Positions 3,297-37,475 of a stretch of 64,000 bases of DNA are shown piece after piece. The position numbers and the translations under genes are program-made. Each line of letters opens with the position of its first letter. The stretch's first letter is position 1. Below the pieces are notes generated by a model. The model saw only the letters and a program-made list of their open reading frames with translations. It made no database searches and had not been told where the DNA came from. The stretch comes from Actinomycetes bacterium (GTDB lineage Bacteria; Actinomycetota; Acidimicrobiia; Acidimicrobiales; Bog-793), in NCBI GenBank assembly GCA_021796545.1, contig JAKABX010000001.1, positions 3,977 to 67,976 of the forward strand, read 5' to 3'.

Positions 3297-3989
3297 CTAG
3301 CGCCCGGCGGCCGCGTCCCCCGGTGAGACTACGGCCCGCCGGGCGCGGTGGCGATCGCGGGTGCCGTAGAACGCGAGAACCTGGAGTTCGGCGGCGAGGT
3401 CGACGGTGCCGAGCCGCACGCTCGGCGCAGCGTGCAAGACGACGGGGGCGAGATTGAGGATCGCCCGCACCCCCGCGCCGGCAAGGCGGTCGGCGAGCGA
3501 CTGGGCGACCTCGGCGGGCGTGGCGAGCACGGCGATGACCGCGCCCTCGCGCCGCACGACGCGCTCGAGGGCGTCGACGTGCTCGACCGGAACGCCCGCG
3601 ACCTCGGTCCCGACGATCTCGGGGTCGACGTCGAGCAGGGCGGCCACGCGCAGTCCCCGGGCGGAGAAGTTGCCCGACCGGGCGAGCGCGCGACCCAGGT
3701 TGCCGACCCCGACGACGACGATCGGGGACTCCTTATCGATGCCGAGCGCGCGGTCCACCTGCGTGAGCAGGTGACGGACCTCGTAGCCGGTCCCCCGCGT
3801 TCCCCACGAGCCGAGGTGGGAGAGGTCCCGCCTCAGCGTCGCCGCGTTGACGCCGGTCGCCGCCGCGAGCTCGGCCGAGGCGATCGTCTGCAGCCCGCGG
3901 CGCTCGTAATCGACGAGCGCGCGGTGGTAGACGGGGAGACGGGCGACCGTCGGCGCCGGGACCTTGGCGCGGAGCCCGCTGCGCCGCAT
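3297..3989 (-). CDS. rex: redox-sensing transcriptional repressor Rex
   Basis: 230 aa. Winged-helix RLPVYHRAL...ELAAATGVNAATLRRDLS, then Rossmann VVVGVGNLGRALA. Sits directly upstream of hemACD, the arrangement known for the Streptomyces rex-hemACD operon. Confidence 0.9.
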   Translation of the reverse strand: MRRSGLRAKVPAPTVARLPVYHRALVDYERRGLQTIASAELAAATGVNAATLRRDLSHLGSWGTRGTGYEVRHLLTQVDRALGIDKESPIVVVGVGNLGRALARSGNFSARGLRVAALLDVDPEIVGTEVAGVPVEHVDALERVVRREGAVIAVLATPAEVAQSLADRLAGAGVRAILNLAPVVLHAAPSVRLGTVDLAAELQVLAFYGTRDRHRARRAVVSPGDAAAGR

Positions 3990-26569: not shown

Positions 26570-27580
26570 ATGCAGACGAGCACAGGCACCGGGCCGATCG
26601 GCGCCGATCTCGCGGCGCCGGCGCGCACCGTTCCCTTCGGCGTCCCAGCGCCCGGCACCGAGGTCGTCCGCTCGGAGTCCGAGCTGCGACGCTTCCTGCT
26701 CGGTCTCCCCGGCGTGGACCAGGTCGGTGTCGAAGAGCGCGCCGCGCGGCTCGGCGGGCGCTCGATCAAGGCTGCTGCCAAGCTCTTCGCGATCGATGCC
26801 GCCATCTCGATGGTCGACCTCACGACTCTCGAGGGGGCGGACACCCCCGGCAAGGTGCGGGCGCTCTGCGGCAAGGCGCGCCGGCCCGACCCGGCCGATC
26901 CCTCCGTCCCCCCGGTCGCCGCAGTCTGCGTCTACCCCGACCTCGTCCCGGTCGCGCGCGGCGCGCTCGCCGGCTCGCCGGTCAAGGTCGCCTCGGTCGC
27001 GACGGCGTTTCCCTCGGGACGGGCGTCACTCGCCGTCAAGCTCGCGGACGTCGCCGACGCGCTCGAGGCGGGAGCCGACGAGGTCGACATGGTCATCGAC
27101 CGGGGCGCGTTCCTCGCGGGTGACTACGGGCGTGTCCTCGAGGAGGTGTTCGCGGTCAAGCAGGCCTGCCGCAAGGCGCACCTGAAGGTCATCCTCGAGA
27201 CCGGCGAGCTCGCCACCTACGACAACGTGCGGCGCGCGGCGTGGATCGCGATGCTCGGCGGCGCGGACTTCGTGAAGACCTCGACGGGCAAGGTCTCCCC
27301 CGCCGCGACGCTCCCGGTCGCCGTCGTGCTGTTCGAGGCCGTCCGGGACTTCCTCGACCTCACCGGGCGCGCCGTCGGGGTGAAGGTCGCCGGAGGCGTG
27401 CGGACGACCAAGAGCGCGATCGGCTACCTCGTCGCGGCGAACGAGGTTGCCGGCGAGGCCTTCGTCGACCCGGCGCTCTTGCGCATCGGCGCGTCGGGCC
27501 TCTTGAACGACCTCCTCATGCAGCGGCAGAAGCAGCGCCGCGGCGCCTACGCCGCGGCCGACGACTTCAGCGTCGAGTAG
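26570..27580 (+). CDS. deoC: deoxyribose-phosphate aldolase (long actinobacterial form)
   Basis: 336 aa. DLTTLEGADTPGKV, VCVYPDLV, EVDMVIDRG and FVKTSTGK (Schiff-base Lys). Confidence 0.9.
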   Translation: MQTSTGTGPIGADLAAPARTVPFGVPAPGTEVVRSESELRRFLLGLPGVDQVGVEERAARLGGRSIKAAAKLFAIDAAISMVDLTTLEGADTPGKVRALCGKARRPDPADPSVPPVAAVCVYPDLVPVARGALAGSPVKVASVATAFPSGRASLAVKLADVADALEAGADEVDMVIDRGAFLAGDYGRVLEEVFAVKQACRKAHLKVILETGELATYDNVRRAAWIAMLGGADFVKTSTGKVSPAATLPVAVVLFEAVRDFLDLTGRAVGVKVAGGVRTTKSAIGYLVAANEVAGEAFVDPALLRIGASGLLNDLLMQRQKQRRGAYAAADDFSVE

Positions 27581-27582
27581 CA

Positions 27583-29011
<1,429 letters not shown>

Positions 29012-29022
<11 letters not shown>

Positions 29023-29881
29023 ACGCGTCCCGGTGGCAAAGACCGCCAAGCTCTACATCGCCGGCGCCTTCCCGCGCTCGGAGTCCGGGCGCTCCTACGT
29101 CGTCAACGCTGCGAACGGCCGCCTGCTCGCGAACGTCGCGGCCGCGTCACGAAAGGACGTGCGCGAGGCCGTCGTCGCGGCGCGCGCCGCACAGGCGCGC
29201 TGGGCGGCGGCCACGGCGTACAACCGCGGCCAGGTCCTCTACCGCATCGCCGAGATGCTCGAGGACCGCGCCCCGACCTTTACGGCGGCGGTCGCGGACG
29301 CGGAGGGCTGCGACGACGCCGACGCCCGCGCGCGTGTCGGCGCGACCATCGACCGACTGGTGTGGTACGCGGGGTGGGCGGACAAGATCGCCCAGATCGT
29401 CGGCGGCGCGAACCCGGTGGCCGGCCCCTTCTTCAACTTCTCGCTGCCCGAGCCGACCGGGGTCGTCGGCGTCCTCGCACCCCAGAACTCGTCGCTCCTC
29501 GGCCTCGTCAGCGTCGTCGCCCCCGTGATCACGACGGGCAACGCGGCGGTGGTCGTCGCGAGCGAGGCGCGCCCGCTGCCCGCGGTCGCCTTCGCCGAGG
29601 TGCTCGCGACCGCCGATCTCCCCGGCGGGGTCGTCAACATCCTCACCGGACGCACCGCCGAGCTCGCGCCTGTGCTCGCCGCGCACCGCGACGTCGAGGC
29701 GCTCGACTGTGCGGGGGCCGGGCCCGAGCTCTCTGCCACCCTCGAGGAGGCGGCCGCCGACAACGTGAAGCGGGTGCTCGCGGCCCCCGGCGAGGAGGAG
29801 GAGTGGAGCGCGTCCCCGAGCGTGCAGCGGATGCTCGCCTTCGTCGAGACCAAGACCGTCTGGCACCCGCTCGGGATCTAG
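29012..29881 (+). CDS. truncated aldehyde-dehydrogenase-family paralog lacking the catalytic Glu/Cys region
   Basis: 289 aa. Aligns by eye to the N-terminal ~60% of the upstream ALDH (LPGGVVNILTG vs LPPGVVNIVTG) but ends before any ELGG or catalytic-Cys motif. The start is TTG 29012 (11-nt overlap) or GTG 29033. Confidence 0.75.
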
Positions 29882-29888
29882 TCAGGCC

Positions 29889-30509
29889 ATGGCACTCACC
29901 GTCGTCGATCACCCACTGGCCGGCGCGCTGCTCAGCGCGCTGCGCGACCGTTCGACACCCCCACCGCTGTTCCGCCTCCTCGCCAAGCGGCTCGCGCTCG
30001 TCTGCTGCCTCGAGGCCACGCGCACGCTGCCGACCGCGCCGGTCGCCGTCGAGACCCCGCTCACCACGACGGGCGGGGTCCGCCTCGCGACGCCGGTCGT
30101 CGCGGTGCCGATCCTTCGGGCCGGGCTCGGGATGCTCGAGGCCGTCACCGAGCTGCTGCCCGAGGTCACCGTCGGCTACGTCGGGCTCGAGCGCGACCAC
30201 GCCACCTTCGAGCCGTCCTTCTACTACTCCAAGCTGCCCCCGCTCGCGGGCCGGACCGTGCTGCTGCTCGACCCGATGCTCGCGACCGGCGGCTCCGCCG
30301 CTGCGGCGTGCACCGCGCTCGCCAAGGCCGGTGCAGAGTCGATCACGCTTCTGTCGGTCGTCGCCGCGCCCGAGGGCATCCGCCACCTCGAGGAGACGCA
30401 CCCCGAGCTCAACATCGTCACGGCCGCCGTCGACGAGGGCCTCGACGATCACGCCTACATCGTCCCGGGCCTCGGAGACTTCGGCGACCGGCTCTTCGGG
30501 ACGAGCTAG
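29889..30509 (+). CDS. upp: uracil phosphoribosyltransferase
   Basis: 206 aa. VVAVPILRAGLGM, LLLDPMLATGGSA (PRPP loop) and YIVPGLGDFGDRLFGT. Confidence 0.93.
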   Translation: MALTVVDHPLAGALLSALRDRSTPPPLFRLLAKRLALVCCLEATRTLPTAPVAVETPLTTTGGVRLATPVVAVPILRAGLGMLEAVTELLPEVTVGYVGLERDHATFEPSFYYSKLPPLAGRTVLLLDPMLATGGSAAAACTALAKAGAESITLLSVVAAPEGIRHLEETHPELNIVTAAVDEGLDDHAYIVPGLGDFGDRLFGTS

Positions 30510-30521
30510 TGGCCCCGCGCG

Positions 30522-30872
30522 TTAGTTCGTCGGTGAATCATCGAACCACGCGCTCGGGTCGCTGAGGTAGAGGCCGCACGCGCAGTCGAGGGCCTCCTCG
30601 GGGCTGCCGGCCGTCATCCCGCTCGGGAGGAACGAGTCCTCGTAGTCGTCGTGGCTCGCCCGGTAGATCGCAAAGCCCCAGGTGTGGAGCACTCCGCCGT
30701 AGCGGAGGCGGCAGAGCTTCTGGACGGTGCCGTCGCCAAGGCGTCCATCGACGTAGGCGAAGTTCGCGCGGAAACGCACGTCGACGCCGACAAGCTCGGG
30801 CCAGCGCTCTTTGGCACGCTCGTTGAGGCGGGCGCTCAGGCTGTGCTTGGTCGATTCCGGTGGCGCCTTCAC
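30522..30872 (-). CDS. hypothetical protein encoded inside the IS, downstream of the transposase
   Basis: GTG 30872 gives VKAPPESTKHSLSARLNERAKERWPELVGVDVRFRANFAYVDGRLGDGTVQKLCRLRYGGVLHTWGFAIYRASHDDYEDSFLPSGMTAGSPEEALDCACGLYL.... Clearly protein-like. The TAA stop lies inside the left IR. The track start 30971 would overlap the transposase 3' end. Confidence 0.65.
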   Translation of the reverse strand: MKAPPESTKHSLSARLNERAKERWPELVGVDVRFRANFAYVDGRLGDGTVQKLCRLRYGGVLHTWGFAIYRASHDDYEDSFLPSGMTAGSPEEALDCACGLYLSDPSAWFDDSPTN

Positions 30873-30894
30873 CGGCCCATTGTTGCCGCCCGGG

Positions 30895-32040
30895 TCAGGC
30901 AGCGAGCGGGACGTGCGACTCGAGGCGCTCGAGCAGGGCGGTGAGATCCTTGGTCGAGAAGCGCCAGTCAAAGGGCGTGGCGGTCGCGTTGTCGTGCTTC
31001 TCGAAGGCCTCGAGGCGCTCAGCGAGGGCCACCAGGTCCGAGAAGTCGCCCAAGCGGACGACCTTGCGCTGGATGATCGAGAAGACGACCTCGATCTGGT
31101 TCAGCCACGAGGCGTGGATCGGAAGGTGGATCAAGCGCGCGTTCGGCAAGGCCGCCTCCATGCGATCGATCGAGCGCTGCCCGTTGTGCGAGGAGCCGTT
31201 GTCGACGACGAAGAAGACGCGCCGGGCGCTCTTGTAGGGCTCTTGCGACATCACCTTGTGCACGAGGGCCATGAACGGTGCGATGCCGGTCTTGTCGGCC
31301 ACCTCGCCAAAGAGCATGGCGCGATGCACGTCGTAGGCGCCGAGGTAGCAGAGCGTGCCGCCCCGGCGATACTCGAACTCGACGCGGCGCAGGCGTCCCG
31401 GGGCGGTCTCGAGATCGCGGTGGCGGCGCGAGAGCGCCTGCAGCTGGGACTTCTCATCGGCGGAGATGACGTACTCGTCCTCCTCGAGCGGGCGCCCGTC
31501 GAAGAGGCGCTCGTAGAGGTCGAGAACCTGAGCGGCCTTCTCGGAGAAGAGCGGATCGCGGGGGAAGATCCAAGAGCGGTAGCGCCAGGGTTTGATCGCC
31601 GCCGCGTGCAGCCAGCGGCGAATGGTCGAAGAGGAGATCGCCTCGACCAGTCCCTCGGTGACCACCTGAGCGGCGAGCTCGTGGGAGCTCCAGCGCACAA
31701 GGGGCACCTCGCGTCGCTCGGGCGGCTCGCAGGCCATTGCCTTCACGTGGGCGACGATCTCACCGGAGAAGCGCCGCAGGCGGCCCGAACGCTTGCGATC
31801 GCTGAGACCGGCACGTCCCTCCTCAAAGAAGCGCTTGCGCCACTTGGAGACGACGTCGACGCAGACTCTCACTCGCCGGGCGATCTCCACATTGGCAAGG
31901 CCGTCAGCGGCGAGCAGCACGATGCGCGCCCGCACGACGTCACGATGAGCGGCGACACCAGAGGAGGCTCGCTGTTCGAGAACTGCCCGATCACCGTCGG
32001 ACAGCACCACGATGAACGGCGACGAGCGAGGCACCGGCAC
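30895..32040 (-). CDS. IS630-family DDE transposase
   Basis: 381 aa. N-terminal HTH (LANVEIARRVRVCVDVVSKWRKRF), then DEKSQLQAL...FFVVDNGSSH...LPIHASWLNQIEVVFSIIQRK, typical of IS630/Tc1-mariner-like DDE enzymes. Confidence 0.9.
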   Translation of the reverse strand: MPVPRSSPFIVVLSDGDRAVLEQRASSGVAAHRDVVRARIVLLAADGLANVEIARRVRVCVDVVSKWRKRFFEEGRAGLSDRKRSGRLRRFSGEIVAHVKAMACEPPERREVPLVRWSSHELAAQVVTEGLVEAISSSTIRRWLHAAAIKPWRYRSWIFPRDPLFSEKAAQVLDLYERLFDGRPLEEDEYVISADEKSQLQALSRRHRDLETAPGRLRRVEFEYRRGGTLCYLGAYDVHRAMLFGEVADKTGIAPFMALVHKVMSQEPYKSARRVFFVVDNGSSHNGQRSIDRMEAALPNARLIHLPIHASWLNQIEVVFSIIQRKVVRLGDFSDLVALAERLEAFEKHDNATATPFDWRFSTKDLTALLERLESHVPLAA

Positions 32041-32302
32041 ACCTCCTGGCTCTCTACGATCGCTGCCAGAAAGTTACACCGATGTATTTATCGGCAGGGC
32101 CACTAGCGCCCCCGTCACGCGCCACTGGGGGAGATCCGAGCCGGGCACCGGTTCCCGGCGCCCGGCTGACACTCGGAGCCGTGCACAGTCTCCGGTCGCA
32201 GCGCCAAGAGCGCGCCCGCAGCCCATCGCCGGCGCCGAGGCGGGCGGCGCCAACCTCCCGGCCTCGCCTGCGCCCGGGCCGCCGAGCAAGCGCCGGAGCC
32301 TA

Positions 32303-32318
32303 AGTGGTCTAGACCGTT
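32303..32318. promoter_or_regulatory. dre-like (DasR/NagR-type) palindromic operator 1
   Basis: AGTGGTCTAGACCGTT matches the Streptomyces dre consensus A(G/C)TGGTCTAGACCA(G/C)T at 14 of 16 positions. It abuts a TTGACG hexamer. Confidence 0.55.
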
Positions 32319-32346
32319 GACGCGTCAAGATCGGCGGGACTACTGT
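32317..32346 (+). promoter_or_regulatory. candidate sigma70-type promoter
   Basis: TTGACG-N18-TACTGT sits between the two dre-like sites. ATG at 32351 is 5 nt after the -10 element. Purely sequence-based. Confidence 0.3.
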
Positions 32347-32351
32347 GCCCA

Positions 32352-32367
32352 TGTGGTCCATACCACT
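32352..32367. promoter_or_regulatory. dre-like operator 2
   Basis: TGTGGTCCATACCACT, 13 of 16 to the dre consensus. The same GTGGTCCATACCAC core recurs as its reverse complement at 37461-37474. Confidence 0.5.
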
Positions 32368-32707
32368 TGGGCGACCACAGCGGCGCCAGCTCGGATCGCG
32401 TCCTTGCCGGTCTCCGACGTCAGGTGCCCGCCGGCGTCCAACCCGTCGTCGTGAACGGGCCGCTGGCACGGCGCGATGTGCGCGCGGCCGACGCCGGTCG
32501 CGTGGGCGCCCGTTGGAGGAGAGGGCGGTCGGAGCCGTGCCGCGGCCCGCTGACGCCGGATCGCCCCGCCTCCCGGGCCGGCGCGGACCGCAAGCATCGC
32601 GACGCCCGGGGAACGGGGCGCGCGGTGACGCAAAGGGCGGCGCGCCTTTGCGCCCGACGGCCGGCGTGCACCGTCGCGCCCCGGACGGCGCCGTCGCGTT
32701 GCCGGGC

Positions 32708-33091
32708 GTGCCGGCGATGATCTCGACGCACTCCGGCCTCGTCGGAGATGGCCCGGCCGAGGGCACGCGCGGCGCGGTCGCGCCGCGCTTCGCCATCCTC
32801 GGCACGAACGAGCCGGGAGTGCCGCCGGACGCCGAGCGCGGGACCGGCGCCCGGACGGGGCTCTCGTTCCCCCGGGCCGGGAACCGGTACCTTTGCGCCC
32901 ACGTGTTCACCGCGCAGCACAGCCACCGCACCCGCGACGTCGGACGCCGAGCCGTCTCGCCCGGTCGCGGCGCAGCCACCGCTCGCCCGGTCGCGGACTG
33001 GGCCGCCTCTCCGGCGCGCGCCCTCCCCTTGCCCGTGAGCGTTCCCCGCCCCTGCGGCGGCGCGCCCGCCGCAGGGGCGGGAAGGCGATGA
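32708..33091 (+). CDS. possible upstream ORF translationally coupled to the GntR regulator (very uncertain)
   Basis: The stop TGA overlaps the regulator ATG (ATGA at 33088-33091). Plus-frame GC1/GC2/GC3 are roughly 76/66/90% from ~32700 onward. The product is Arg/Pro/Gly/Ala-rich and unlike known families. Candidate starts are GTG 32708 or ATG 32717. Confidence 0.25.
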
Positions 33092-33942
33092 GCGCGCGCC
33101 CGCCGTCGGGAGCGGCACCGGGCGCGCCGGCGACCGCCGAGGAGCGCCTGGCCGACGCTTCGCGCGTCCCGAAGTACTACCGGCTGAAGCAGGAGCTGTT
33201 GAAGCAGCTCGAGTCGCTCGCGCCGGGGGAGTCGCTCGCCTCCGAACGCCTGCTCGCGGCGAAGTTCGGGACCTCGCGTACGACGGTGCGCCAGGCCTTC
33301 CAGGAACTCGTCGTCGAGGGACGCCTGCAGCGCGTCCACGGCAGTGGCACCTATGTCGCGCCGCCGAAGCTCACCCAGGCCCTGCAGCTCACGAGCTACA
33401 CCGAGGACATGCGCTCGATGGGCATCGAGCCGAGCTCGCGCGTGCTCGAGGTGGCCCAGCTGAGCGCCGACGACTTCCTCGCCAAGCGCCTGTCGATCAC
33501 CGTCGGCGGGCGCGTCGTGAGGATCAGGCGCCTGCGCATCGCCGACGGTGAGCCCCGCGCGATCGAGACGACCCACCTTTCGGCGGCCCGCTTCCCTCGG
33601 CTCCGCCAGAACCTGGCTCGCCTCGGCTCGCTCTATGCGGCGCTCGCCGACGTCTACGGCGTGCACCTGGCGGCCGCCGAGGAGACGATCGAGACGGTCC
33701 TCGCCCGTCCCGAGGAGGCTGAGCTCCTCGAGACCGACGTCGGGCTGCCCATGCTGATGCTCTCGCGGCACTCCTTCGACAGCGACGGGATGCCGGTCGA
33801 GTGGGCGCGCAGCGTCTACCGCGGCGACCGCTACAAGTTCGTCGCCTGGCTGCAGCGGCCCAAGGGGGCGGAGGGCGCCGACCATCCTGGTGCCGAGATG
33901 GTCGTCTTGCCTGCCCGAGGGCGCCGCGGCGAACGGCGCTGA
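33088..33942 (+). CDS. GntR/HutC-family transcriptional regulator (DasR/NagR-like)
   Basis: ATG 33088. [61 protein letters not shown] (GntR wHTH) plus a UTRA-like C-terminal domain. Adjacent to GlcNAc genes and dre-like sites. Confidence 0.85.
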
Positions 33943-34052: not shown

Positions 34053-36008
34053 CTACTTGATACTGCCGGCGGTGAGCCCCCCGACGAGATAGCGCTCGAT
34101 CGTCGCGAACAGGACGACGACGGGAACGATGCCGATGAGCGACGCCACGAACAGGTAGTTGTACTGCGTCTGGTAGAGGCCGACGAACGCGTTGATCCCG
34201 ACCGTCAGCGTCTCGCGGTTGGTCGTCGGGTTGTTGAAGACGGTCTCGGCGACGACGAACTCGTTCCACACCTGGATGAAGGTGAAGATCACCGCCGTGA
34301 CGATCGCCGGCTTGGCGAGGGGGAGCACCACGCGTGTCATCGTCTGGAAAGGCGTCGCCCCGTCCACGAGCGCAGCGTCCTCGATGTCGACGGGGATGCT
34401 CGCGAGGTACCCGTTCATGATCCACACGGCGAAGGCGAGGTTGAACCCGGCGTCGATCAGGATCAGCGCCCAGTAGCTGTTCATCCCGTTGACGCTCGAG
34501 ACCTCCCGGAAGATCCCGACGACGAGCGCCACCGGCGCGAACATCTGGGTGACGAGGATGGCGTAGAGGAAGGCCTGGCGACCGCGGAAACGGTGCCGCG
34601 CCGTGTAATACGCCGCCGGCAGCGCGACGCCGAGGACGAGCAACGTCGATCCGCCAGCGATGATCAGGCTGTTCACCAGGTAGGAGGCGAGGGGGATCTG
34701 GCTCCAGACGCTGGCGAAGTTGCCCCACTCCGGGTGCGTGGGCAGGTACAGCGCCGGCGAGTGGAAAAGGTCGAGGTTCGACTTGATCGAGGAGAGGAAC
34801 ATCACCGCGTAGGGCGCGAGGAAGAACGCTGCGACGAGCGCACCGATGACGGGCAGCCCCACCGCCCGCCCGCGCCGCCAGCCCGTAGCCAGCACCGCGG
34901 CAGGCCGTCGCAGCGGGAGCGCGACACCCGCCGCGAGGCGCGCAAGGACCGCCTCGAGCCCCGAAGCGAGGCCGGCCAGGACCGTTGCGACCCCCCGGCG
35001 GGCCGCCGCAAAGGCGGACCGGCGGGCACCCGGCGCGGATGGGACCGCTGCGGCGTCGGACTCACTGCGCCGCACGTGGCGCACGTAGACTCCGACGAGC
35101 GCCATCAGCACGGCCACGTTCAGCACACCGAGTGCCGCCGCCTCGCCGGCGTCGAGGCGGTAGGTGAAGGCGATCTTGTACATGAAGGTGATCGTCGTGT
35201 CGGTGGCGTCCCCGGGGATCTTGCCCGTGATGACCCAGATGATGGGGAAGGAGTTGAAGACGTAGATCGTGTTCAGCACGATCGCGACCGTGAGCGAGGT
35301 GCGAAGCAGCGGGAAGGTGACGAAACGGTAGGCCTGCCAGGCGCTGCACCCGTCCACCCGCGTCGCGTCGTCGAGCTCCGGCGGGATCGCCTGCAGCCCG
35401 GCCAAGAGCACGTAGGTCGTGAAGGGGATCGAGACGATGACCCCGACCACGATGAGGCACCAGAAGGCGGTCGCGGGGTTCTGGTACCAGTAGACGGGTG
35501 CCGAGATGAGGTGCAGGTCCAAAAGGACGCGGTTCAGCATCCCGTAGGAACCCTCGTAGATGTAGCGCCAAAGCGTGGCGGTCATCACGAGGGAGGCCGC
35601 CCAGGGGACGATCAGCGCCCAGCGCACGACGCGGCGTCCGGCGAAGCGCTTATTGAGGAACTGGGCGAGCGGCAGTGAGAGGAGCACGGTGCAGCCGACC
35701 ACGAGGACGACCCACAGCACCGTGTTGACCACGACGTGTCCGAGCGCGGGCTCGGAGAACAGGTTGCGGAAGTTCCCAAGTCCCGTGAAGCCCTGATCGA
35801 GGCCGATCGAGCTGATCCGGTGCAGCGAGGTGATGACCATCTCGATGGCGGGATAGACGACGACGGCGGCGATCAGCGCCACGGTCGGTCCGATCCACAC
35901 CAGGGGCACCAAGCGGCGGGCGTGGCGGCGCGGGCGTGGCGGACCGGTGGTGCGGGACCGCCCGCCGCTGACCGCCGGGGCGGTGGAAGAGGCGGTGGTC
36001 ACCGACAT
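34053..36008 (-). CDS. fused CUT1-type ABC sugar permease (MalF-like and MalG-like halves in one 651-aa polypeptide)
   Basis: A single uninterrupted ORF. The first half has the EAA-loop-like AGLQAIPPELDDATRVDGCSAWQAYRFVTFP and the second has IPVDIEDAALVDGATPFQTMTRVVLP. They are joined by a ~65-aa Ala/Arg/Gly-rich linker. Confidence 0.8.
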   Translation of the reverse strand: MSVTTASSTAPAVSGGRSRTTGPPRPRRHARRLVPLVWIGPTVALIAAVVVYPAIEMVITSLHRISSIGLDQGFTGLGNFRNLFSEPALGHVVVNTVLWVVLVVGCTVLLSLPLAQFLNKRFAGRRVVRWALIVPWAASLVMTATLWRYIYEGSYGMLNRVLLDLHLISAPVYWYQNPATAFWCLIVVGVIVSIPFTTYVLLAGLQAIPPELDDATRVDGCSAWQAYRFVTFPLLRTSLTVAIVLNTIYVFNSFPIIWVITGKIPGDATDTTITFMYKIAFTYRLDAGEAAALGVLNVAVLMALVGVYVRHVRRSESDAAAVPSAPGARRSAFAAARRGVATVLAGLASGLEAVLARLAAGVALPLRRPAAVLATGWRRGRAVGLPVIGALVAAFFLAPYAVMFLSSIKSNLDLFHSPALYLPTHPEWGNFASVWSQIPLASYLVNSLIIAGGSTLLVLGVALPAAYYTARHRFRGRQAFLYAILVTQMFAPVALVVGIFREVSSVNGMNSYWALILIDAGFNLAFAVWIMNGYLASIPVDIEDAALVDGATPFQTMTRVVLPLAKPAIVTAVIFTFIQVWNEFVVAETVFNNPTTNRETLTVGINAFVGLYQTQYNYLFVASLIGIVPVVVLFATIERYLVGGLTAGSIK

Positions 36009-36143
36009 GGCACTCCCGAGCGCTCGCGCACACCTCGCACCGGCCGCTGTGGTGGTGCCAGGGACATGCTCACCTCGCTCCTCGCGGGACGGCCGGAGGC
36101 CGGGCCGCTCGCACGGCCCGGCCTCCGGTGTGGGGGATCTGTG

Positions 36144-37400
36144 TCAGCGTCCGGAGGTCGCGACCTGCTGGAGCGAGTTGAGCACCGATGCCGGGCTCGT
36201 CCCCGGCGTCATCGCCGTTCCGATCTGGCTCTGGACCGCCGCCTGGATCTGGTTCCACTTCGGATTGGTCAGCGGGTAGAACTTCGCCGAGGGCAGCAGC
36301 GCGATGCCCGTCGCGTCGACCGGGTTGTGCGCCAGCGCCGCGCTCGCCGACGCGGTCGCCGGCAGGAAGCCTTCACGCTGCACGAAGTTCAGGTAGTTCG
36401 ACTTCTGGTAGACGAAGTCGAGGAAGGCCTTGTCGAGCGGCGCGTTGCCCGTCCGCTTAAAGGCCATCAGGACATCCTGCACGCCGAGCGTGAACTTCGG
36501 AATGCTGAGGTTGGCGCGAGGCCACGGCGCCGAGGCCCAGTTGACCTTCGACTTGGCCATGAAGGAGGTCTGGAAGGTACCGAGCGGCATGATCTCGGTC
36601 ATCGCCACCTTGCCGGTCGCGAAGTCCGCCCAGCATCCGCTCGTCCGGTCGGTCGATCCCGGGTTGGGCTCGGTCACCTTGTCGACGTTCGCGAGCTTCG
36701 CGAGGAAGTTGAGCGCCTGGATGTTCTTCGGGCTGTTGATGGTGAACTTCCCCGCCGAGTTCACCCAACCGCCGCCGTTTGACCAGGCCCACAGCGAGAA
36801 CTCGGCCTGGGCCTCCTCCGAGCCGAGCGGCAGGCAGTAGCCGATGTAGCCGGCCTTGGTCGCCTTCTTCGCGTCGGTCACGAACTGTGCCCACGTCTGC
36901 GGCGGCTTCGCGATGCCGGCCTTGGCAAAGGCCGCCTTGTTGTAGCCGAGGCCGCGCACACTGGCGATCCACGGGATGCCGTACTGGACACCGCCGATGC
37001 TGTCGCTCTTCACGAACGACTTGATGAAGTCCGCGCGCACCGCGGGCGAGAGCACGTCCGACGCTGGGAAGAGAAGGCCCGCCTTCGCATAGGTCGCGTA
37101 GTTGTTGAAGTTCAAGATGTCCGGGTACGAGTGCGTCTGGATCATCGTCGGGACCTGCTGGAGCAGCGTGTTCCAGTCGATGACACGCAGATTGACGTGG
37201 ATCTGGGGGTCCTGCTTCTCGAAACGAGAGACGAGGTCCTTCCAGTACGGGGTCGTCTTGCTGCTGTACTGCGCCATCACGACATTGATGCTGCCGCTCG
37301 GCCCCGAGGCCCGTCCGCTGGCGACCGCCGTCCCCGCCGTGGCGAGACCGACGGCGCCGAGCAGGCCGATGCCCGCGGCGATGCGAGGTGCTCTTCTCAC
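36144..37400 (-). CDS. ABC transporter extracellular solute-binding protein (family 1, sugar)
   Basis: GTG 37400 is preceded by aagggagggg. MRRAPRIAAGIGLLGAVGLATAGTAVA is a signal peptide. 418 aa, typical SBP_bac_1 length and composition (NgcE/DasA-like context). Confidence 0.85.
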   Translation of the reverse strand: MRRAPRIAAGIGLLGAVGLATAGTAVASGRASGPSGSINVVMAQYSSKTTPYWKDLVSRFEKQDPQIHVNLRVIDWNTLLQQVPTMIQTHSYPDILNFNNYATYAKAGLLFPASDVLSPAVRADFIKSFVKSDSIGGVQYGIPWIASVRGLGYNKAAFAKAGIAKPPQTWAQFVTDAKKATKAGYIGYCLPLGSEEAQAEFSLWAWSNGGGWVNSAGKFTINSPKNIQALNFLAKLANVDKVTEPNPGSTDRTSGCWADFATGKVAMTEIMPLGTFQTSFMAKSKVNWASAPWPRANLSIPKFTLGVQDVLMAFKRTGNAPLDKAFLDFVYQKSNYLNFVQREGFLPATASASAALAHNPVDATGIALLPSAKFYPLTNPKWNQIQAAVQSQIGTAMTPGTSPASVLNSLQQVATSGR

Positions 37401-37459: not shown

Positions 37460-37475
37460 AGTGGTATGGACCACT
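37460..37475. promoter_or_regulatory. dre-like operator 3, between the divergent SBP and SIS genes
   Basis: AGTGGTATGGACCACT is a perfect 16-nt inverted repeat apart from the two central bases. It lies 60 nt upstream of the SBP start codon. Confidence 0.55.

Follow-up and report, generated by a model that had tools for sequence, protein, structure and literature searches.

Probable remains of a DasR-controlled sugar-transporter operon upstream of dasR in an uncultured actinobacterium

We analyzed 64,000 nucleotides (nt) of DNA from an Actinomycetes bacterium (GTDB lineage Bacteria; Actinomycetota; Acidimicrobiia; Acidimicrobiales; Bog-793). This stretch, which we will call the window, is positions 3,977 to 67,976 of the forward strand of contig JAKABX010000001.1 (NCBI GenBank assembly GCA_021796545.1), and all positions below are positions in the window. 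Our subject is the region at 32104-33091, which lies between an insertion sequence (IS) of the IS630 family and the gene for a GntR/UTRA regulator, dasR. The region contains two dre sites with a promoter-like element between them and, next to dasR, the fossil of a permease gene. We believe that the region is probably what remains of an operon for a sugar ATP-binding cassette (ABC) transporter that was controlled by DasR and led into dasR.

The same locus, with the IS, is found in four near-identical public assemblies, which are metagenome-assembled genomes (MAGs) or metagenome assemblies (L017-L019 and L047). Beyond these four, our scans of genomes and metagenomes found no relative whose DasR is more than 78% identical. 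Labels such as L001, L020, and L041 refer to related loci that we compared with the window.

The regulator and its dre operator

The product of dasR (33088-33942, plus strand) has the Pfam domains GntR and UTRA and is a GntR/HutC-family repressor. It matches the structures of DasR from Streptomyces coelicolor (4zs8 and 9i0v; E = 7.6e-100), and the recognition helix, TSRTTVRQA, is conserved. It is also 68-70% identical to GntR-family regulators from Streptomyces. Going by these sequence comparisons, the regulator is an ortholog of S. coelicolor DasR. Among the four assemblies, dasR contains two single-nucleotide polymorphisms (SNPs), one of which (at 33568) changes a threonine to an alanine.

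A preliminary description of the region had reported two dre-like palindromes on either side of a promoter-like element. Both palindromes are real. The first (AGTGGTCTAGACCGTT, at 32303-32318) has two mismatches to AGTGGTCTAGACCACT and abuts the 5' side of the -35 hexamer. The second (TGTGGTCCATACCACT, at 32352-32367) has three mismatches and lies just 3' of the -10 hexamer, over the expected start of transcription. (We took the dre consensus from PMC4398421. The 16-bp palindromes in the window fit the form of the dre sites in the DasR regulon of S. coelicolor, which is A(G/C)TGGTCTAGACCA(G/C)T.) The promoter-like element between them, TTGACG-N18-TACTGT, is at 32319-32348 on the plus strand. 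There is also a third dre site (AGTGGTATGGACCACT, at 37460-37475), in the 143-nt region between the divergent genes for a solute-binding protein (SBP) and for the SIS, ROK, and NagA proteins. In the entire 64 kb, these three sites are the only matches with four or fewer mismatches, and the expected number with three or fewer mismatches is just 0.06. The third site shows that there is a local regulon, and the nearby cluster of genes for N-acetylglucosamine (GlcNAc) is probably under DasR's control.

Three related loci have the same pair of -35 and -10 elements. The aligned promoters are TTGACG-N17-TACTTT in L020, TTGCCG-N17-TACTCT in L041, and TTGAGG-N18-TACTCT in L048. In all three, a canonical first dre site lies within the spacer of 17-18 nt, and its end forms the -10 element, TACT(T/C)T. 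A second dre site, with the unusual core GGT(C/G)CATACC, lies 6 nt past the -10 element. The core of the second dre site in the window, GGTCCATACC, is also present in the second site of L020 (ATTGGTCCATACCAAT) and of L048 (GTTGGTCCATACCACT); L041 has ATTGGTGCATACCACT. The -35 element, the -10 element, and the core of the second dre site are common to all four lineages (the window, L020, L041, and L048). The window retains these parts, but the copy of the first dre site in its spacer is degenerate (…GACTACT), and a canonical site is found 5' of the -35 element instead. Also, TTGACGCGTCAA (32319-32330), which contains the -35 hexamer, is a perfect 12-bp palindrome. The palindrome and the displaced dre site suggest that, as compared to L020, L041, and L048, the operator has undergone a small rearrangement, or else that a second regulator has a site here.

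The operator block as a whole (32303-32367) is an AT-rich island, with a G+C content of 0.57, as compared to 0.79 in its flanks. Among the four assemblies, there are 10 SNPs in 32281-32744, and none of them are within the dre sites or the hexamers. So far as the alignments can tell, the operator is homologous to the double-dre operator and promoter of an ancestral sugar ABC-transporter operon (see below), which supports and extends the earlier reading of these elements. Given the placement of the two dre sites, binding by DasR would block the promoter. We infer that DasR binds these sites and that transcription would start near 32355.

A permease fossil and the probable loss of an operon

Gene finders predict a 246-codon open reading frame (ORF) on the plus strand (32351-33091), and it is called in L017-L019 and L047. 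As described earlier, the TGA of this ORF overlaps the ATG of dasR (ATGA at 33088-33091), and this ATG lies 720 nt after the second dre site. The phase signals for the plus strand also held up on reanalysis. There is no phase signal at 32490-32620, and then the G+C content at third codon positions (GC3) is 0.90-0.97 from about 32625 to 32900 and 0.82-0.85 thereafter, which is far beyond chance. The product of this frame was said to be rich in Arg, Pro, Gly, and Ala and to belong to no recognizable family. Our protein and Pfam searches agree: among 5.8 billion proteins, the 246-amino-acid product has no homologs besides its own near-identical copies.

Nevertheless, we found that the last part of this ORF is the fossil of a gene for a MalG-type sugar ABC permease (32696-33091, plus strand). 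It comprises the last 131 codons and the stop, and its frame is still open. First, we ran blastx against related genomes, which had been proposed as a check. In a composition-corrected comparison to all ORFs of the related loci, a single frame matched a single protein, the permease that adjoins dasR. E values were between 1e-4 and 3e-3 for the dasR-adjacent permeases of L042, L001, and L020. The match scores 37 bits; none of 3,000 codon shuffles reached this score, and the best of them scored no more than 27.7 bits. With tblastn, the match is colinear over 32696-33037.

Second, in a MAFFT alignment, the last 131 codons align without gaps all the way to the stop, and 36 of the 131 residues (27%) are identical to those in L001. 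If the nucleotide sequences are aligned without gaps and anchored at the stop codon, then the fossil is 52% identical to the orthologs, versus 31-35% for controls that were shifted but kept in phase.

Third, we divided 32696-33088 into six blocks of 60-93 nt and compared 91 offsets for each. The unshifted alignment was the best in five of the six blocks, and it was second by 0.01 in the other (z = 3.1-7.0). In the next block upstream of 32696, this test gave no signal. The window and its relatives also share the 3' end, GGGGCGG..AAGG.GATGAG.

By these comparisons, the homology and colinearity of the fossil with the 3' end of a MalG-type permease gene are clear. NCBIfam assigns the L020 ortholog to the family MalG/GlcU/UgpE; in a CUT1 sugar ABC system, this is the second permease. 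Of about 299 codons, we can trace the last 131 in the fossil. The functional permease of the window, which is a fused protein, is only 39% identical to the permease clade that the fossil came from. The fossil does not resemble it, so the fossil is not a recent local duplicate. Decayed gene fragments had been one of the suggested readings of this region. This was correct for the plus strand, where the fragment is the 3' end of a permease gene, but it is not supported for the minus strand (see below).

Two other comparisons led nowhere. Searches of the region with blastn and tblastx against the first 16 related loci gave compositional noise only. And a phosphotriesterase-like gene of L009, which has a dre site beside it, matches 32705-32755 over 53 nt (79% identity). 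This hinted at another gene fragment, but it is probably due to chance, as the protein has no tblastn hit.

Why does the fossil look like an orphan gene? G+C contents at codon positions 1, 2, and 3 are 0.77, 0.71, and 0.89 in the fossil, as compared to 0.63, 0.40, and 0.94 in its orthologs. Position 2 is the least conserved, and its differences from the orthologs run strongly in one direction (49 from AT to GC and 8 from GC to AT). Non-coding DNA in the window has a G+C content of 0.67-0.88, and the remainder of the studied region is at 0.79, so the fossil is approaching the non-coding level at each of its three codon positions. This convergence accounts for both the Arg/Pro/Gly/Ala-rich orphan ORF and the fading GC3 phase. 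It turns codons for Phe, Ile, Leu, and Val into codons for Pro, Ala, Arg, and Gly, and it is how an old pseudogene in this genome should be expected to look. The fossil has lost its coding capacity: it is truncated, its hydrophobic positions have been replaced, and the SNPs are all non-synonymous. (Among the four assemblies, the 246-codon ORF has seven SNPs, with six at codon position 1 and none at position 3.)

The relatives show various stages in the loss of this operon. In L020, the double dre is followed by genes for an SBP, a MalF-type permease, and a MalG-type permease (the two permeases are separate genes), then by murQ on the opposite strand, and then by dasR. In L049, the MalG-type permease is intact (with 81-86% identity to its counterparts in L001, L020, and L042), and its terminal GGATGA supplies the ATG of dasR. 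As L049 has this overlap with an intact permease, the ATGA overlap is ancestral. In L001 and L042, the permease is followed by about 45 nt of spacer that holds a Shine-Dalgarno (SD) motif, then by dasR.

In two other loci, the permease is decaying. L041 (4590-5001) has the double dre, a permease remnant that is truncated at its 5' end, and then dasR. The remnant is 87% identical to L042 at the nucleotide level, and it has four deletions (of 3, 17, 13, and 1 nt) per 39 substitutions, which spread it over three reading frames. In L048 (176-407), the double dre is followed by about 190 nt that end in a permease tail of 45-60 nt with a 1-nt shift, and then by dasR, which starts at the same GGATGA-derived ATG. 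The fossil in the window is the oldest and longest of the set, and L041 and L048 are independent losses of the same operon. Overall, there have been at least two, and probably three, losses of the transporter, each of them leaving the operator with only dasR to drive.

We therefore favor the following history, as the sequence comparisons would have it. The ancestral locus would have been a DasR-repressed sugar operon on one strand, with a double-dre operator followed by the SBP, the MalF-type permease, the MalG-type permease, and dasR. In the window's lineage, the transporter genes would have been lost, with the operator (32303-32367), about 330 nt that we cannot assign, and 131 permease codons (32696-33091) surviving. 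The start of dasR would be the ATG in the terminal GGATGA of the permease. The dre-flanked promoter would therefore most likely now serve dasR; it would be autoregulated, with a leader of about 735 nt.

Several observations weigh against this history. The promoter is weak by consensus (it matches 8 of 12 consensus positions and falls below the threshold of a strict sigma-70 scan, which does not report it), and we infer its function. Pfam finds no match in any of the long ORFs of the region in any of the six frames, and its BPD_transp_1 model misses the fossil. Similarity of the fossil is seen only with the closest clade of permeases, and it is absent with the permease of L007 and with the window's own permease. 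The part of the region between the operator and the fossil shows no similarity to the relatives' operon, at either the protein or the nucleotide level.

The unassigned part, at 32368-32695 on the plus strand, is the 5' part of the presumed dasR leader. We considered remnants of the SBP or of the MalF-type permease of the L020 operon, but their best matches were within the range of shuffled sequences. Just 5' of the onset of the plus-strand phase is a hairpin, GCAAAGG-N8-CCTTTGC (32630-32651), that is unusual in containing A and T; it could be a relic of a terminator or a deletion junction.

This part of the locus is also polymorphic. Of the 30 variable sites across 16.4 kb among the four assemblies, 10 are in 32281-32744, and 7 of these 10 fall in 32368-32695. 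The density of SNPs in 32281-32744 is above what simple neutrality would predict from the flanking genes. Two of the sites (32281 and 32606) show all four combinations of alleles. This violation of the four-gamete rule reflects either recombination or a consensus of mixed strains.

The start of dasR and possible translation of the fossil

We then considered whether the fossil might still be translated, as the preliminary description had suggested that a coupled upstream ORF could control translation of the regulator. Four observations bear on this.

First, the fossil has no net indels in any block over 393 nt, despite about 190-200 mismatches, and the original stop is in frame. Deletional bias is general in bacterial pseudogenes. 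If we calibrate on this bias and on the one related fossil in L041 (1 indel per 10 substitutions), then ten or more indels would be expected. Even at a rate that is five-fold lower, the probability of seeing none is about 0.02.

Second, the window lacks the SD sequence and the GTG start that relatives have. In L042 and L041, the sequence that leads from the permease stop to the conserved VPKYY has 31 nt, with AAGGAGG and a GTG start, that are absent from the window, so the only available start for dasR is the ATG within the fossil's stop.

Third, this start is predicted to be occluded. A perfect 16-bp G+C hairpin with a 5-nt loop (CCCGCCCCTGCGGCGG / CCGCCGCAGGGGCGGG, at 33045-33081 on the plus strand) lies in the last 15 codons of the fossil, with its 3' arm extending into the SD-like GGGAAGG. 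There are about seven comparable hairpins in the 64 kb. The 3' arm is ancestral permease sequence, and changes in the 5' arm have made the two arms match; L042, L001, and L049 have no such hairpin. In the predicted fold, the hairpin is enclosed by an outer stem on the same strand (33013-33035 with 33078-33100), which pairs both GGGAAGG and the dasR ATG. Unpairing -15 to +6 around this ATG is predicted to cost 29.3 kcal/mol, as compared to 4-18 kcal/mol for 17 other genes in the window and 7-19 kcal/mol for the dasR starts of 10 related loci. (These are predictions in a context of 80-85% G+C.)

Fourth, there are no SNPs in 32745-33087 (343 nt), versus 10 in the preceding 464 nt (P ~0.004).

Because it accounts for the lack of indels, the lost SD and GTG, the occluded start, and the SNP-free 3' part, translation of the fossil is the simplest common explanation. 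We tentatively propose that translation of the fossil continues, its frame having been kept because terminating ribosomes open the hairpin-occluded start of dasR; we would put this at somewhat less than an even chance. A dead gene would then be serving as a translated spacer, with 131 codons and a stop kept in frame despite about one substitution per two sites, ahead of a hairpin-buried dasR that lacks its own ribosome-binding site. This too is a possibility that we hold with some doubt. If so, selection would act on the frame and its length and not on the peptide, and it may even favor the loss of the hydrophobic segments of the truncated protein.

The main competitor is that the remnant is purely neutral: a transcribed spacer, with direct initiation of dasR at the ATG, where luck or a low indel rate in this lineage would account for the missing indels. 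We consider this unlikely, but much of the evidence is compatible with it. The amino acid sequence is unconstrained, as shown by the seven non-synonymous SNPs, the drift in composition, and the lack of homologs. An open frame is expected from the composition (P = 0.1-0.4; for the 246-codon ORF, the probability of no stop is 0.10). In L048, dasR uses the same ATG without a long upstream ORF, and L041 also lacks a long in-frame ORF upstream of dasR. The SD-like GGGAAGG before the dasR ATG has a duplex energy that is typical of this genome. Of these points, the expected open frame and the case of L048 also weigh against translation of the fossil, as does the calibration of the indel rate on a single related fossil. 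In addition, the comparisons all rest on contigs from uncultured MAGs or metagenomes, and the exact locus is present only in the four near-identical genomes.

The upstream ORF also lacks a convincing start site, although we looked for one. The GTG at 32537 has the best SD (the SD-like GGAGGAGAGGG, at 32514-32526, is in front of this in-frame codon), but by prediction this SD is itself buried, with an opening cost of 27.3 kcal/mol. The ATG at 32717 has the opposite problem, being accessible with a weak SD. As for the ATG annotated at 32351, it is 3 nt after the -10 element and overlaps the second dre site (32352-32367).

What a neutral remnant does not readily explain is that 393 nt have diverged by about 50% with no net indel, that a perfect 16-bp hairpin was created by changes in one arm, that the start region is an outlier in its predicted occlusion, and that the SNP-free 3' part contrasts with the adjacent sequence. 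At the rate seen in L041, 4 to 20 indels would be expected, and a five-fold lower rate would still put the probability of none below 0.02. A coupled upstream ORF remains plausible: the indirect evidence (no indels, an ancestral ATGA, the lost SD and GTG, and the occluded start) is in its favor, and the missing ORF start is not. Overall, the data suggest a mostly ordinary gene fossil with a hint of continued translation that helps to switch on dasR.

Other explanations, neighboring genes, and known systems

Could the 246-codon ORF, or a shorter form that starts at GTG 32537 or ATG 32717, encode a real lineage-specific protein? The frame is open with a high GC3, it is called in four assemblies, and its stop overlaps the next start as in an operon. 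But we consider this very unlikely. Among 5.8 billion proteins, homologs are confined to the same species, and there is no Pfam family. The C-terminal half is the tail of a permease whose hydrophobic residues have been replaced (with G+C at position 2 going from 0.40 to 0.71). None of the seven polymorphisms, all non-synonymous, are at codon position 3. And the annotated start, so close to the -10 element and on top of a dre site, is another point against it.

It is also highly improbable that the 720 nt are a structured regulatory RNA, such as a riboswitch or a leader resembling a small RNA, that controls dasR. A long structured leader had been among the suggested readings, and the leader does have a very high G+C content, folds that are predicted to be stable, and a perfect hairpin beside the start. 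However, a covariance-model search of 31900-33300 with Rfam, at E values of up to 10, gave only chance-level hits and nothing above threshold, and the predicted fold of the leader has z = -1.9 (20 shuffles). The 5' half is the most polymorphic part of the locus, and the 3' half is explained by its descent from coding sequence. We found no specific support for this reading.

Two related loci, L043 (443-933) and L046 (2229-2955), also have long upstream regions of dasR without genes (490-730 nt), whose DNA sequences are conserved between the two loci, which could be taken to favor an RNA. But they are unrelated to the window's leader. They have no dre sites with three or fewer mismatches, and when we tested whether they are permease fossils, they were not.

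The reported remnant of a minus-strand gene, which would end at TAG 32340-32342 (…GKDAIRAGAAVVAQVVWTTWAQ) and overlap the second dre site, has hardly any chance of being correct: although the phase pattern at 32393-32460 is shaped like that of a minus-strand gene (the minus-type pattern extends over 32355-32460, with 9, 15, and 19 G+C of 20 per phase at 32401-32460), a contrast that large arose in 47 of 2,000 first-order Markov simulations of the 5' part, which is marginal, the low-GC phase is partly due to the AT-rich operator, there is no Pfam hit, and HMMER, run in full over 1.84 billion representatives, matched the minus ORF to only two repetitive low-complexity proteins. The peptide loosely resembles the C-terminal motif of ROK kinases, and L041 has a ROK gene near dasR. 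But tblastn did not confirm this. We rejected both a ROK-kinase C-terminus and remnants of the GH20 and ROK genes of an L041-like neighborhood, as neither the ROK, GH20, and other neighbor proteins of the relatives nor the ROK protein encoded in the window gave a tblastn match.

The region is flanked on the other side by the IS630-family element (30507-32105, minus strand), which has inverted repeats (GTGGCCC…) and a TA duplication. Its transposase (30895-32040, minus strand) has helix-turn-helix and DDE_3 domains. A second ORF within the element (30522-30971, minus strand; 116-149 amino acids) has no Pfam family. The insertion is found in all four public assemblies. It lies exactly on the TAG stop of upp (29889-30509, plus strand), and the stop codon was regenerated by the insertion. 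Before the insertion, the studied region would have started directly after upp. Farther upstream, two ORFs of the aldehyde-dehydrogenase family (27241-29022 and 29012-29881) overlap by 11 nt. (In the stop-to-start ORF, the first of these has a long Arg-rich N-terminal extension that is probably non-coding.)

Downstream of dasR, on the minus strand, are the genes for the fused MalF+MalG-type permease (34053-36008; 651 amino acids, with two BPD_transp_1 domains) and for the SBP (36144-37400). Between these two genes is a perfect 15-bp hairpin (36093-36128). In ABC operons, the junction between the SBP and permease genes is the usual place for an intercistronic stabilizer or attenuator. Beyond the SBP gene are the SIS, ROK kinase, and nagA genes (plus strand) and a murQ-like gene (minus strand). 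The window is 73% G+C.

How does this locus compare to known systems? In S. coelicolor, too, a CUT1 sugar ABC transporter lies beside dasR (dasR-dasABC), and dasR and dasA are divergent. They share an intergenic region that is bound by DasR, and DasR binds at its own locus (PMC4398421). In the window's clade, a double-dre operator is instead followed by the transporter genes and, last of all, by dasR, which is on the same strand as the transporter genes. And in the window, unlike in S. coelicolor, the transporter has been lost, with only the operator and the permease tail left. The GlcNAc-catabolic genes nearby (SIS, ROK, nagA, and the murQ-like gene), with a further dre site, give the locus a likeness to the DasR regulon, so far as gene content can indicate.

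Among cases of decay, the closest are L041 and L048, in which the same gene, at the same position behind a double dre, was truncated at its 5' end, with its 3' end kept by dasR. The fossil in the window has about 50% nucleotide identity, no net indel, and its stop in frame, while the remnant in L041 is young and has four deletions, and the one in L048 is 45-60 nt long with a 1-nt shift.

The window also resembles translationally coupled genes with ATGA overlaps, in that it has the 4-nt overlap and a downstream start that is predicted to be occluded. The difference is that the coupling in the window would involve an upstream cistron that no longer encodes a functional protein. As with leader peptides and upstream ORFs that act by attenuation or stalling, there is an ORF in the leader of a regulated gene. 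But leader peptides are short and have conserved sensing sequences, whereas this ORF has 124-246 codons, has no sequence constraint, and is derived from a transporter. We looked for stalling or attenuation motifs and for a terminator in the leader and found none. In a literature search, which was not exhaustive, we found no precedent for a coupling ORF that derives from a pseudogene. If the coupling is real, then the locus would be a clean natural case in which selection acts on translation itself and not on its product.

More broadly, an annotated hypothetical protein has become a recognizable gene fossil. This is a warning for gene calling in high-GC MAGs, where a dead gene can give rise to an Arg/Pro/Gly/Ala-rich orphan ORF with a fading GC3 phase. 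The locus also documents, outside of Streptomyces, dasR as the last gene of a dre-controlled transporter operon. Overall, our finding is a case of gene decay and, probably, of DasR autoregulation, both of which are of kinds that are already known.

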